Shown here in pieces: positions 19,146-24,835 of a stretch of 61,517 bases of DNA; the first letter of the stretch is position 1, and each line of letters begins with the position of its first letter. Origin of the DNA: a virus; the IMG/VR virus record IMGVR_UViG_3300035128_000105, positions 1 to 61,517 of that record. One strand, written 5' to 3'. The notes beneath the pieces were generated by a model. The model was not told the DNA's origin, ran no database searches, and saw only the letters and a list, made by a program, of their open reading frames with translations. The position numbers were made by a program, and so were the translations under genes.

Positions 19146-19687
19146 TAGCCGTCGGACGATTCACCGTCAGAGTCCTTGCTGGGTTGGGCGTAGCGCGGCA
19201 GCGTCCTCTCATCAGGGAGATCCCATTGCTCCAAGGAGATGTGCGTCGGCGTAAAACTGTTTTCGCCGATAACCATCAGATGATCGCCTTTGCGCAGACC
19301 GAGCTTCGTCAACAGGGTCGAGACAAATTGTTTCTCGTGCGCCACCATTTGATCGAGTAGCGCCTGTTTCTCTGCTTCACGATCGGCGCGCTGTTTGGCG
19401 ACTGCTTCAGCGTAGGTTGGACCGCTGAGTGTTTCGGCGACCTCCGCCTTGATTCGATCCTTGACGTTGTCGAGCGAACTGATGGGAATGCGCATCATCG
19501 ATCGGAAGACGCGCTCGAAACGTTTCTCGAAACCGTCTTGTTCAAAGTAGGGCGTCAAGATCGGACGCAAAATGTCGAGACACGTGTTGATCGATGCATC
19601 TGTCCGATCGTTACAAGCGTCGATGGCAGCTTCGCAGGTTTGTAGGGGCGTCATCTTCAATTCCTTCCTTCTTCCAACAGCATTCAT
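19145..19687 (-). CDS. hypothetical protein (starts MNAVGR within conserved start block)
   Basis: 180-aa ORF; start embedded in repeated motif AGATGAATGCTGTTGGAAG. Confidence 0.45.
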   Translation of the reverse strand: MNAVGRRKELKMTPLQTCEAAIDACNDRTDASINTCLDILRPILTPYFEQDGFEKRFERVFRSMMRIPISSLDNVKDRIKAEVAETLSGPTYAEAVAKQRADREAEKQALLDQMVAHEKQFVSTLLTKLGLRKGDHLMVIGENSFTPTHISLEQWDLPDERTLPRYAQPSKDSDGESSDG

Positions 19688-19808
19688 CTAGATGCAACGC
19701 CTACTGGCAACGACGATAAACGGGGTGCAAAACGGCGACGCAAACGAGTAGCACAAACGTGACGCTGGTTGCTACTTCAAATGTCGAGGACGGCACCTGC
19801 TCCAACAT

Positions 19809-20354
19809 CTAAGGACCTACGGCGGAAAGGCGCTCCCGAATCTGCAGCAACAATTTGTACGCGTCCTCGATGTCGTCGCCCTCATCGCGATCCATCAACA
19901 TGCACGCTTTTTCGATTTTGCCTTTGATGTCGAACACGGCTTGTTCGGCATCTTCGGAACGGCGACGGGTGATCTCGGCAACGACGAGTGAGTGCTTTTG
20001 CCGAATGAAGCCCAGCGCCCCGCGTACACTCTTCCACCAGTCGAAGGCGTCCACCAACTCGCGCCCCTCCTCGACGCTGATGTCGTACTTTTTGCCAAGC
20101 GCGGCAGCGAGAACGTCGGGTTTGACGGGTCCAAGCTGGCGCGACAGCTCACGCACCGGTGCGATCTCGGGCCCAGCCGTCTCCATTTGCTGTTGCAGGG
20201 TCGCTATCGCGCCCTTCATTTCCTCGGCCAACCCACGCAGCTCTGGAACCGGCAGCCCGACAACGCGGTTGCGCACCTGGTACACGTGCTCGGTGTGCCA
20301 CCAGGGGCGCTCTTGTTGCCAGAAGCTTACTGGTTCTTCACTGCTGTTTGGCAT
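19809..20354 (-). CDS. hypothetical protein
   Basis: 181-aa ORF. Confidence 0.45.
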   Translation of the reverse strand: MPNSSEEPVSFWQQERPWWHTEHVYQVRNRVVGLPVPELRGLAEEMKGAIATLQQQMETAGPEIAPVRELSRQLGPVKPDVLAAALGKKYDISVEEGRELVDAFDWWKSVRGALGFIRQKHSLVVAEITRRRSEDAEQAVFDIKGKIEKACMLMDRDEGDDIEDAYKLLLQIRERLSAVGP

Positions 20355-20827
20355 TCGCTTTCCAATTCACGAGGGTTGATCAAGTGGACAGTGCGTTGAA
20401 CCTTGTTGGCGTACAGGACTGTGTTAGCGGTCCCACCCGCACTACCGTCCCACACTGCGATCAATCGATCACAACGATCCACCATCCACTCGTTCCGCGC
20501 CTGCATTTTCCACCGAGCGTAGCCTGGATCGCAAACATGTACGATTTCCGCCGCTTTCGCGAGGAGTTGTCGATACCGTATTTGAGCTGGCGTGGGCCAC
20601 CGCGACTCCTGACCGACAAACGGAACGGCAGCGAGAAACGGGATTGACAGATCCAAACATGCTTGCGCGAACCACTGATCGACGCCAATGGCCATGCCTG
20701 AGATCCCCAACGTCGCGTTCGCCTCAACGAGAGCGTCCTTGAGGTTATCAGTAATGCAGGAACGCAAGGAGTTGTTCCCGTAACCGCCGACCTTGGGAGG
20801 CCGGTGACCTGTGACACTAACGATCAC
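20327..20827 (-). CDS. YpsA-like SLOG-family protein (DUF1273-like)
   Basis: VTGHRPPKVG, ISGMAIGVDQWFAQACLDL, AVPFVGQESRW, LIAVWDGSAGGT align block-wise to B. subtilis YpsA. Confidence 0.6.
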   Translation of the reverse strand: MIVSVTGHRPPKVGGYGNNSLRSCITDNLKDALVEANATLGISGMAIGVDQWFAQACLDLSIPFLAAVPFVGQESRWPTPAQIRYRQLLAKAAEIVHVCDPGYARWKMQARNEWMVDRCDRLIAVWDGSAGGTANTVLYANKVQRTVHLINPRELESECQTAVKNQ

Positions 20828-20935
20828 GGGGCTACCTTACCAAACAGCAGTGACAAGTGTCCCCGGCCAACCGTGCGCGGAGTGAAGATCGTCGGGAAAC
20901 AACCCGCTGCAACGATCGGCCAGGGACAAAGACAG

Positions 20936-23581: not shown

Positions 23582-23605
23582 GGATTCTCCTTTGGGTTCG
23601 ATCGA

Positions 23606-24235
23606 TCAATCGTTGTAGAACGTGCTGACGTTGGTCTGTGTGTACTCTTTGTGAACGACGCGGTTTTTATCGGTGCGCTCGACCCACAACCGTTTCCCCG
23701 GATAGAACGAATTGAGGTAGAGCGCCCACGCCAGATCGAACGGGTGTTGGTATCGGTTGTGAGTGCGTGCGACAGGTTGAAGTGGAAGGGCTGAAAGCAA
23801 GTTGAGTTCGACAGTGTCAATGACAGCGGCAGCAGCGGCCAAACCATCCGGGGGCGTAGCGTCCTCTTTGAGACGAAACAAAGGCACGGTGATTAGCTGG
23901 CGTTGAACAGTCGTGGGAAGCGTCTCCCAGAGATCCAACAGCGATCCTTCAGCCAGTTTCCAATCGTAGGTTCGACACTCACGTCCACGGGCCGCGTTGA
24001 CCCACGACAGCAACGCAGCGCTGTCATTCGTGAGATGGAACAACATGTACGTGTCCCACGTGTTCGTCATAGCGACCTTGCCCATCAGCCATCGATCTTC
24101 GGCGTTGCCGATCAATGCACAGACGCGCGCACAATCCAGTTTTCGCGAAAGGGCGTCATCGACCGCTTCAGGGTAGGCACGGAGCCCCAAACCCTTCCAG
24201 GGCGGCATGATCCGTTTACTTCCGGCAGCATTCAT
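23606..24235 (-). CDS. hypothetical protein (starts MNAAGSKR in conserved start block)
   Basis: ORF 23606..24379 trimmed to ATG 24235 inside repeated motif. Confidence 0.45.
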   Translation of the reverse strand: MNAAGSKRIMPPWKGLGLRAYPEAVDDALSRKLDCARVCALIGNAEDRWLMGKVAMTNTWDTYMLFHLTNDSAALLSWVNAARGRECRTYDWKLAEGSLLDLWETLPTTVQRQLITVPLFRLKEDATPPDGLAAAAAVIDTVELNLLSALPLQPVARTHNRYQHPFDLAWALYLNSFYPGKRLWVERTDKNRVVHKEYTQTNVSTFYND

Positions 24236-24554
24236 CTCGGGTAGACGTATCAGCGGCGGCGTTCCGTTCGTTGTTGCGTTGGCTGAACGCATCCGCAGCC
24301 GTTTGGCGATACCACTCAGGTGCCTTGCCGCCTGTCGCGACGATTGCTGCCAGCGCGTTGCTGTAGACTTCCACGTCACGCTTCAGCTCGGTGTTGTCGC
24401 CGAGATTCAGGAGATCGACGATGCAATGTGCGTCAGTGTAGTTGAGGTTCTGGGCGACGATTCGGTTGTTGCGCTGGCGACCCCCGCTGACGAGCGTATC
24501 TTCGATCTGCCATACGCGTCCGGTTGGATCATGGGTTGTCTTGTACCGTTCCAT
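24216..24554 (-). CDS. hypothetical protein
   Basis: 112-aa ORF. Confidence 0.35.
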   Translation of the reverse strand: MERYKTTHDPTGRVWQIEDTLVSGGRQRNNRIVAQNLNYTDAHCIVDLLNLGDNTELKRDVEVYSNALAAIVATGGKAPEWYRQTAADAFSQRNNERNAAADTSTRDECCRK

Positions 24555-24835
24555 GGCTTACCTGGATCCCCGTTCAAGAGCAGCAAGAAGTGCACACCTC
24601 ACACGGCCAATCTTCCAACAGCATTCATCTCAGGTAGACGTCGCACCCCCTCAAACGCATCGGGCGCCAGGTGAGCATAGATCTCTGAGCGCATTGCCGT
24701 TTACCGAAGGGCCATGTGGGCGACTGTGTTCCTGACGCGACACGTGCCGGTCTCGTGACTGTGGCGGCGCCACGGTTCAGCGCAGCGCGCATACGTCACG
24801 TGGGTGTCGATCGGTTTGAAGTACTGCAAAATCGA

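Follow-up and report, generated by a model that had tools for sequence, protein, structure and literature searches.

A short repeated block at gene boundaries of a large phage: a possible boundary or leader cassette

What is the role of a short block of DNA that recurs, each time with an ATG of its own, in front of dissimilar genes of a single phage? The question is raised by a stretch of 61,517 nucleotides, here called the window, which is a portion of a large phage and in which three copies of the block (A, B and C) share a core of 19–20 nt, AGATGAATGCTGYYGGAAG, on the minus strand. Copy A (24612..24641, minus strand, 30 nt, ACGTCTACCTGAGATGAATGCTGTTGGAAG) lies inside an intergenic spacer of 281 nt (24555..24835, minus strand), 57 nt upstream of the start codon of an ORFan. 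Copy B (24219..24248, minus strand, 30 nt, ACGTCTACCCGAGATGAATGCTGCCGGAAG) deviates from copy A at 3 of 30 positions, forms a direct repeat with it at a distance of 393 bp and ends 10 nt before the called start of the following gene at 24208. Copy C (19670..19689, minus strand, AGATGAATGCTGTTGGAAGA) occupies the 3' end of a 154-nt intergenic spacer (19655..19808, minus strand), adjoins a Shine-Dalgarno-like AAGGAAGGA directly and ends about 16 nt before the conserved start of the next gene at 19654. Its 20 nt are identical to copy A (19670–19689 matching 24611–24630); 5' of the core it differs from copy A at seven of the remaining positions, and the only element kept in register is a 'CGT' at −12 to −10 that is common to all three copies. 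The sequence-only reading had described a block of ~30 bp at three loci, the third at 24611..24640. The repeat is genuine, but the full 30-mer, ACGTCTACCYGAGATGAATGCTGYYGGAAG, is present at two loci only (24219–24248 and 24612–24641, both on the minus strand), while the 19.7-kb locus carries the 19-nt core alone (19671–19689), and the third copy exists with its position shifted by one nucleotide, to 24612–24641.

A chance repeat can be ruled out, with three matches of the core observed against 0.01 expected; for the 30-mer, no match at all was expected by chance (100 shuffles). The specified core positions are perfect in the copies (17/17) and the flanks are devoid of similarity, local DNA alignments of the flanks being at shuffle level, so that the boundaries of the block are sharp. 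There are no degenerate copies in the window, where the next best matches have 3–5 mismatches and are as numerous as in shuffled sequence, nor is there a copy on the opposite strand that could act, for example, as an antisense element in trans. The additional mid-gene copies that had been named as the mark of a chance repeat are thus absent from the window. Contigs from an independent Logan assembly (L028, L029) span all three copies with 100% identity, and the block is therefore not an assembly artefact.

According to the original proposal, the block supplies the initiation region and the first residues, MNA(V/A)G, of the genes behind it. Within the block, ATGs are located at 19687, 24235 and 24628. 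Those at 19687 and 24235 continue in frame into long ORFs (MNAVGRRKELKM... and MNAAGSKRIM...), namely the genes 3' of copy C (19145..19687, minus strand, 180 aa from the block ATG) and 3' of copy B (23606..24235, minus strand, 209 aa from the block ATG), and the probability that both would be open and in frame by chance is about 0.05–0.1. The third opens nothing but the nine-codon ORF MNAVGRLAV* (24599..24628, minus strand), exactly as had been read; it is possibly an upstream ORF or else meaningless. Initiation at the block could be Shine-Dalgarno-independent or of the leaderless type, given that many genes of this phage are without a Shine-Dalgarno sequence, that the phage encodes its own IF3 and that four of six palindrome-associated promoters carry a TAnnAT hexamer 6–8 nt before the ATG, an arrangement that implies leaderless transcripts. 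Such a hexamer is absent 6–8 nt 5' of the block ATG, however, and the gene calls of the public contigs place the starts at ATGs 27–33 nt further downstream, at 24208 and 19654, yielding proteins of 200 and 169 aa, respectively. Furthermore, in L001, the closest syntenic relative, the orthologue of the 180-aa ORF begins exactly at the equivalent of Met12, where an 'MT' is conserved and the orthologue has its own Shine-Dalgarno sequence, and the 11-codon extension has the codon usage of non-coding DNA (−0.19 per codon). Conservation also reaches 13 nt 5' of the ATG and breaks off midway through codon 6, unlike the pattern of a coding sequence. In copies A and B these 13 nt are in different frames or non-coding, and their conservation is therefore at the nucleotide and not at the protein level. 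The N-terminus of the 209-aa protein, compared with one orthologue (L001 2032–2640, 43% identity), is ambiguous, and the block ATG is a possible start here. Taken as a whole, a true translation-initiation cassette with a nine-codon upstream ORF at the third locus is unlikely: the block ATG is probably not the main start, and where it is in frame it is probably incidental or gives rise at most to a minor, N-terminally extended isoform. The finding thus corrects the gene starts, as N-termini beginning with MNA(V/A)G probably do not exist.

A related idea appears very improbable to us: the block would signal in cis to the translation machinery, so that AUGs without a Shine-Dalgarno sequence, or short upstream ORFs, are marked for initiation under the phage IF3. 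As this phage also appears to make leaderless mRNAs and to encode an autoregulated RF1-like factor, the block would belong to a translation-control programme run by the phage and would be portable with gene cassettes. The suggestion that the shared 5' ends are a remnant of gene duplication did not survive: the three downstream ORFs have no similarity to one another in BLASTP, and neither protein nor flanking DNA reveals any relationship past the block that would point to paralogous N-termini.

If not a shared protein start, what does the block mark? Revealing information came from the comparison with L001, which is collinear with the window over ~13 kb at 68–75% nucleotide identity and lacks the block entirely. 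At the first junction, 2 nt in L001 are replaced by about 600 nt in the window (+609 nt), and at the second junction 9 nt compare with 154 nt (+148 nt); the block forms the 3' edge of both window-specific insertions. Other indels between the two, such as +161 nt at 17640–17941, proceed without it. The first insertion comprises the ORFan of 112 aa (24216..24554, minus strand), which is bracketed by copies A and B and whose last 11 codons and stop codon pass through and just beyond copy B, together with the 281-nt spacer that is likewise absent from L001. The ORFan has coding-like, phage-like codon usage (score 0.25–0.35), whereas a plus-strand ORF of 155 aa that covers both copies (24207–24674) scores ~0 and was rejected. 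A 55-aa ORF within the 281-nt spacer has non-coding codon usage as well, and a 35-aa ORF in the spacer of the second junction, along with a 'TAGATG...TTGGA' likeness at its start, was set aside as unsupported. Among 5.8 billion proteins, the only full-length match of the ORFan is the ORFan itself; a weak, repeat-driven similarity to SprB-repeat proteins was judged uninformative, and no homologue is encoded in L001 or in L031–L033. The notion that the block marks recombination junctions is thus borne out by the comparison with L001. Since the copies lie just 5' of small accessory genes and two of them bracket a gene that is absent in the relative, the most likely role of the block is to mark boundaries of recombination and regulation, and not a protein start that the genes have in common.

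Within this frame, the best explanation in our view, at a probability of roughly 40%, is that the block is a non-coding boundary or leader cassette specific to this lineage, and that the ORFan was inserted through the homology it provided. The block would then be an element of DNA or mRNA, short and strictly conserved, that lies in the sense direction at the 5' edges of three units of accessory genes. The ORFan unit, whose 393 bp equal one block plus the gene, would enter, and could leave, by recombination between block copies, either in a Campbell-type event or by the mini-circle route proposed for the PeSL (promoter-early stem-loop) cassettes of T4-type phages. An additional cis effect on the expression of the downstream gene may explain why the block has stayed unchanged; it could be a 5'-leader site for a phage or host factor, an internal promoter that is not of the sigma-70 type, or a processing site in the long minus-strand operon. 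This reading is favored by the fact that all three copies reside on the coding strand, directly 5' of called gene starts, although this placement is partly forced, as the insertions tolerated in a tightly packed operon are intergenic. Arguments against it are that 30 nt are short for efficient homologous recombination and that the block occurs in no relative and in no public collection scanned.

The latter point is based on several searches. An MVP search retrieved the source contig (100%), L001 (74%) and otherwise only sequences with ≤56%, and a scan of viral contigs with a single protein for closer relatives returned no match. A profile scan led to 26 MVP-bearing viral loci, three of them syntenic, and the block is present in none of these. 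Exact-pattern scans gave 0 matches in viral contigs and unrelated single matches in metagenome contigs (26) and genome contigs (11), mostly within genes of gut or other bacteria and with unrelated flanks.

Nearly as likely as the boundary or leader cassette is a scar without function, that is, a short patch copied at gene boundaries during insertion by illegitimate or short-homology recombination, for example as a duplication of the recipient junction upon insertion of the ORFan and a short-patch conversion at the second junction; the copies would then be identical only because the events are recent. Several observations speak for it. The copies are perfect, a family of degenerate members is missing, and all three are confined to 5 kb, which looks more like recent copying than like an old family of regulatory motifs; the block is also missing from L001 and all other data scanned, lies at the edges of lineage-specific insertions and is accompanied by no promoter, structure or Rfam signal. 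In addition, right 3' of copy B, where the 200-aa gene has its called start, ATGCCGCCCTGGAAG bears a weak likeness to the core (ATGCTGCC--GGAAG), and this likeness, which ~2% of the window segments equal in score, hints that the block may have been derived from, or have targeted, the start region of that gene. On the other hand, a pure scar does not account for the third copy, which is 4.5 kb away with unrelated flanks on both sides and yet is oriented like the others and placed alike with respect to another gene's ribosome-binding site, and the 20-nt identity of copies A and C amid unrelated flanks would require an unusually short conversion tract. A duplication of 30 nt also far exceeds the target duplications of transposons. 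Insertion of a transposon or MITE with a target duplication of 2–15 bp was in fact rejected: the direct repeat measures 30 nt with three differences, neither terminal inverted repeats nor a transposase were seen, as judged from the lack of an opposite-strand copy of the block in the window and of any Pfam or PHROG match for the ORFan.

The cis-acting role envisaged for a boundary or leader cassette leads to the question of whether the block carries a recognizable regulatory signal. The block may be a common regulatory leader. A scan of 18500–26000 for sigma-70-type promoters yielded 0 sites, and on manual inspection no −35/−10 elements shared by the copies were apparent in the block or in its flanks. 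Sigma-54 and ECF-type promoters were dismissed upon inspection on account of incorrect GG/GC spacing and the lack of a consistent GGAAC at −35, and an N4-like hairpin promoter because two copies offer a stem of just 5 bp, G-T pair included. The folding energy of the block alone is only −3.2 kcal/mol, the folds of its 140-nt contexts do not surpass those of shuffled sequence (z +0.5 to +2.8) and there is no Rfam match at E ≤ 1. An RNA element with a fold beating shuffles or belonging to an Rfam family was consequently discarded.

These results also bear on the proposal of a phage-specific promoter or operator, in which a candidate phage RNA polymerase, sigma factor or repressor would recognize the block and recombination would play no part. 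Its length of 20–30 nt and strict conservation are reminiscent of promoters for single-subunit RNA polymerases, and every copy is oriented with the genes. Nevertheless, neither the Pfam results for the larger ORFs of the window nor the precomputed Pfam matches in the gene tables include a sigma factor or RNA polymerase gene. Because the 78-kb contig extends beyond the 61.5-kb window by ~16.6 kb, a cognate factor could lie in the remaining part. There are just three sites, moreover, two of them only 393 bp apart, no consistent −35 or ECF-type element precedes them, and the evident promoter family of this phage is a different one, consisting of the palindrome GATCGCAGCTGCGATC followed by TAnnAT. 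We therefore regard a dedicated promoter or operator as decidedly improbable.

How does the block compare with repeats described for other phages? It resembles the PeSLs of T4-type phages and the start-associated sequences of Cluster K mycobacteriophages, and falls under neither definition. PeSLs are mobile regulatory cassettes (Arbiol et al. 2010, PMC2839356; Comeau et al. 2014, PMC4122927) of ~100 bp that combine a consensus sigma-70 promoter with a terminator stem-loop, amount to ~50 per genome and are present in both relatives (PMC2839356, PMC4122927); ORFans flanked by such repeated cassettes, with the flanked gene missing in a relative, have been reported (PMC2839356). Similarities to the block include the repetition of elements between genes, in a hyperplastic region whose small genes have no known function, the usual position of the copies directly 5' of ORFans, an ORFan that is flanked by two copies and missing from a close relative (here L001), and recombination between copies as the proposed route of insertion and excision. 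In contrast to PeSLs, the block is only 20–30 nt long, occurs in three copies, is absent from the relative and has neither a sigma-70 promoter nor a stable stem-loop.

In Cluster K mycobacteriophages, start-associated sequences (SAS/ESAS) are repeats of unknown function (Pope et al. 2011, PMC3203893). The SAS comprise 13 bp with an AGGAG Shine-Dalgarno core 3–7 bp from the start codon, and the 11–19 copies are conserved across subclusters (PMC3203893). Like these, the block is a short asymmetric repeat that is restricted to the non-structural arm, has a single orientation, stands beside the starts of unrelated genes and is lacking in the host and in other phages. It differs in that its 3' end reads GGAAG instead of AGGAG, in that it lies 10–57 nt from the called starts, in that it contains an ATG itself and in its distribution, as the 61.5 kb hold three copies and L001 and the 26 other loci lack it.

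The mosaic boundaries of lambdoid and other phages feature 'linker' sequences at gene junctions, as formulated in the modular-exchange model. There, too, a short shared sequence at a gene boundary coincides with the junction of an inserted or exchanged module. Linkers are shared between phages at the points of exchange, however, whereas the block recurs within one genome and has no known donor.

Phage mosaicism of this kind is fairly ordinary. If the block did serve in both cassette insertion and expression, the concept of the 'mobile regulatory cassette', for which most documentation to date comes from T4-type coliphages, would reach an unrelated lineage of environmental phages and a much shorter element without a sigma-70-type promoter, and a concrete, testable case of ORFan gain would be at hand. 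If it is a scar only, it would still be a neat, if small, example of mosaicism through short homology. In both cases, the locus points to a phage whose translation genes form an unusual set: in addition to the IF3 gene there is an RF1-like gene with a +1 frameshift site, CUU-UAG, and the RF1-like factor appears to be autoregulated. A gene for a vault protein is present as well.

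The block is a genuine, sharply bounded repeat and not a product of chance, as judged from match counts against shuffles, the lack of degenerate copies, unrelated flanks and independently assembled Logan contigs that cover the copies with 100% identity. The sequence-only reading had placed a block of about 30 bp at three loci; the full 30-mer stands at two of them, whereas the third has a core of 19-20 nt alone. The 30-mer has two exact matches in the window, both on the minus strand: copy A (24612-24641) and copy B (24219-24248); none was expected from shuffles. The core, AGATGAATGCTGYYGGAAG, occurs three times versus 0.01 expected, the additional site being copy C at 19671-19689 (minus strand). 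Three positions distinguish copy A from copy B: T/C at position 10 and TT/CC at 24-25. Copies C and A share 20 identical nt, and 5' of the core copy C keeps just 'CGT' in register. At 30 nt the repeat has two direct copies, 393 bp apart, and only at 19-20 nt does it have three. Mid-gene copies, considered earlier as a sign of a chance repeat, did not turn up: a mismatch-tolerant scan of the window yielded no further copy at all, degenerate or antisense, the next matches carrying 3-5 mismatches and the number of matches with up to 5 mismatches falling inside the shuffle range. The flanks of the three copies show no similarity on either side.

The block had been thought to supply the initiation region and the first residues, MNA(V/A)G, of two genes. 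Its ATG is indeed in frame with the 209-aa ORF downstream of copy B and the 180-aa ORF downstream of copy C, but on public contigs the former is called from 24208, giving 200 aa, and the latter from 19654, giving 169 aa. In L001, the closest syntenic relative contig, the orthologue of the 180-aa ORF starts exactly at the equivalent of Met12 (MT...) with its own AGGAG upstream; in the window, AAGGAAGGA precedes the ATG at Met12, and codon usage in the 11-codon extension is of the non-coding type. The N-terminus of the 209-aa ORF is left unfixed by its single orthologue, and many genes of this phage have no Shine-Dalgarno sequence, so this ORF may start at the block ATG. The ATG of copy A opens nothing but MNAVGRLAV*, the nine-codon ORF described before. 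A and B also share 13 nt 5' of the ATG, which are coding in B (C-terminus ...TSTRDECCRK* of the 112-aa ORFan) and non-coding in A; conservation is therefore at the nucleotide level. Taken with these gene starts, a true initiation cassette, as originally proposed, appears unlikely. The idea of a gene-duplication remnant has to be dropped, as neither the three downstream proteins nor the flanks are related.

Relatives were found by a protein search with the major vault protein (MVP) homologue, which retrieved the 78-kb JGI source contig, 100% identical, and one relative, L001, with 74% identity. For ~13 kb L001 runs collinear with the window (68-75% nucleotide identity); it contains no copy of the block at ≤3 mismatches, nor any comparable repeat. 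At the first junction, L001 has 2 nt between the stop of its orthologue of gene 24836-25231 and the start codon of its 202-aa orthologue, whereas the window has ~600 nt of extra DNA, comprising in order a 195-nt spacer, copy A, a 57-nt leader and the 112-aa ORF, whose end is overlapped by copy B. At the second, a stop-to-start gap of 9 nt in L001 compares with 154 nt in the window, where copy C closes the spacer on its 3' side and adjoins the ribosome-binding site. The suggestion that the block marks recombination junctions is borne out in that two insertions specific to this lineage carry copies at their 3' edge, always in sense orientation and at the 5' edge of accessory genes, and in that A and B form direct repeats around the ORFan. 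Each insertion ends with the block. Not all indels between window and L001 carry the block, as exemplified by +161 nt at 17640-17941.

The bracketed ORFan (24216-24554, minus strand) has coding-like codon usage and, across 5.8 billion proteins, matches at full length only itself. Beyond that, an exhaustive HMMER search yielded just weak, repeat-driven matches to SprB-repeat proteins; the match of residues 47-105 to the ATGGxAPYxY SprB repeat of Bacteroidota gliding-motility adhesins (E 2.8e-9) is probably not meaningful. Neither L001 nor L031-L033, three syntenic viral loci at a greater distance, has an equivalent of the ORFan, and the latter three also lack the 209-aa and 180-aa genes, so that this region is hyperplastic.

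An exact scan of IMG/VR for the core gave 0 matches, metagenome contigs gave 26 single matches with unrelated flanks and GC content, and bacterial and archaeal contigs, sampled at one genome per species, gave 11 single matches, which were scattered. None of 27 related or MVP-bearing loci contains the block at ≤3 mismatches. As far as public data show, it is specific to this genome.

The block is best read as a lineage-specific mosaic-junction or leader repeat and not as a shared N-terminus. We tentatively propose, with a probability of about 0.4, a boundary or leader cassette that would provide portable homology for ORFan insertion and probably acts in cis in expression. In T4-type phages, recombination between flanking PeSL cassettes has been proposed to excise or insert ORFans via mini-circles (PMC2839356; PMC4122927), and the arrangement repeat-ORFan-repeat here versus nothing in the relative is the hallmark of that system. 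Start-proximal placement in a single orientation recalls the start-associated sequences (SAS) in mycobacteriophages of Cluster K, repeats with no assigned function (PMC3203893). However, the block has no promoter plus stem-loop and no Shine-Dalgarno core, its copy number is low and it is not conserved in the relative. With these defining features missing, it is functionally like PeSL or SAS at most and a member of neither. It represents a variation on phage boundary repeats already known, with a putative function. Statistical support for 'start-associated' over merely 'intergenic' is modest because, with genes packed so tightly in an operon, every insertion that is tolerated falls 5' of some start; what remains are coincidences of orientation, two or three in number, and the location at spacer 3' ends. 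A functionless, recent recombination scar is nearly as likely as the cassette, doubtful as it is in its own right. In favour of a scar, degenerate copies are missing, the copies cluster within 5 kb, relatives lack the block, and the region around the start called for the 200-aa gene is weakly similar to it (ATGCCGCCCTGGAAG versus ATGCTGCC--GGAAG), a score reached by ~2% of window segments. It is opposed by the third copy, which has the same orientation and position relative to a ribosome-binding site despite unrelated flanks.

We consider a pure promoter or operator improbable. No sigma-70-like promoter was found in 18.5-26 kb, and the block has no RNA structure better than shuffles and no Rfam match. 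Upon inspection, sigma-54, ECF and N4-hairpin architectures did not fit. Neither a sigma factor nor an RNA polymerase came up in the window's gene tables or Pfam results. A perfect palindrome, GATCGCAGCTGCGATC (one variant, GATCGCGTCTGCGATC), occurs on either strand at six sites (3802-3817, 11145-11160, 16831-16846, 48540-48555, 58031-58046 and 60691-60706), 13-23 nt 5' of a start codon, and four of the six have a TAnnAT hexamer followed by ATG 6-8 nt later. It probably represents the phage's recognizable promoter family, distinct from the block, and palindrome, hexamer and ATG spacing suggest operator-controlled promoters producing leaderless or near-leaderless mRNAs.

The window is phage-like. 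The block copies lie within a minus-strand run of small genes, mostly of unknown function (~3 to 28.6 kb), and flank the 881-aa MVP homologue (20936-23581, minus strand; MVP_shoulder 5.5e-26, Vault_3). Its search returned >3700 homologues, the named top matches being Myxococcota MAGs (~52-56% identity), and MVP is also encoded on 26 IMG/VR viral contigs (17.5-470 kb); viral and bacterial MVPs have already been described in preprints (10.1101/2023.11.10.566534; 10.1101/872010). The divergent intergenic region 28564-28842, between genes for an ORC/Cdc6-like ATPase and a primase-helicase, is a candidate replication origin; in it lie TGTGGATAA, which is a perfect DnaA box, a near-copy of this box, TGTGGACAA, and an inverted repeat rich in AT, GTGTACA-T7-TGTGTACAC. 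The plus-strand replication module (28.8-47 kb) encodes the primase-helicase, a Sak4-like protein, a helicase, a methyltransferase and a 1624-aa DNA polymerase (37332-42206) with intein-type matches, its PHROG matches being typical of intein-bearing genes. A 917-aa PD-(D/E)XK-like protein (31602-34355, plus strand) has Intein_splicing and LAGLIDADG_3 domains, and its ORF start carries six copies of the 12-nt tandem repeat CGACCAGCCAGG (31703-31798). A single tRNA gene, tRNA-His (GTG), lies at 54089-54164 (minus strand).

The phage also encodes translation initiation factor IF3 (7971-8507, minus strand; Pfam IF3_N and IF3_C, E ~1e-29; NCBIfam infC, 195.8 bits versus a cut-off of 60). An RF1-like release-factor gene (4645-5314, minus strand; best NCBIfam matches prfA) lacks the N-terminal domain and is split into 37-aa and 214-aa ORFs that overlap at ...CGG AGG GGT CTT TAG CCT... 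near 5203-5215, a putative CUU-UAG-C +1 frameshift site with a Shine-Dalgarno-like GGAGGGG upstream. This mirrors the autoregulatory CUU-UGA-C site of prfB, the stop here being one read by RF1.
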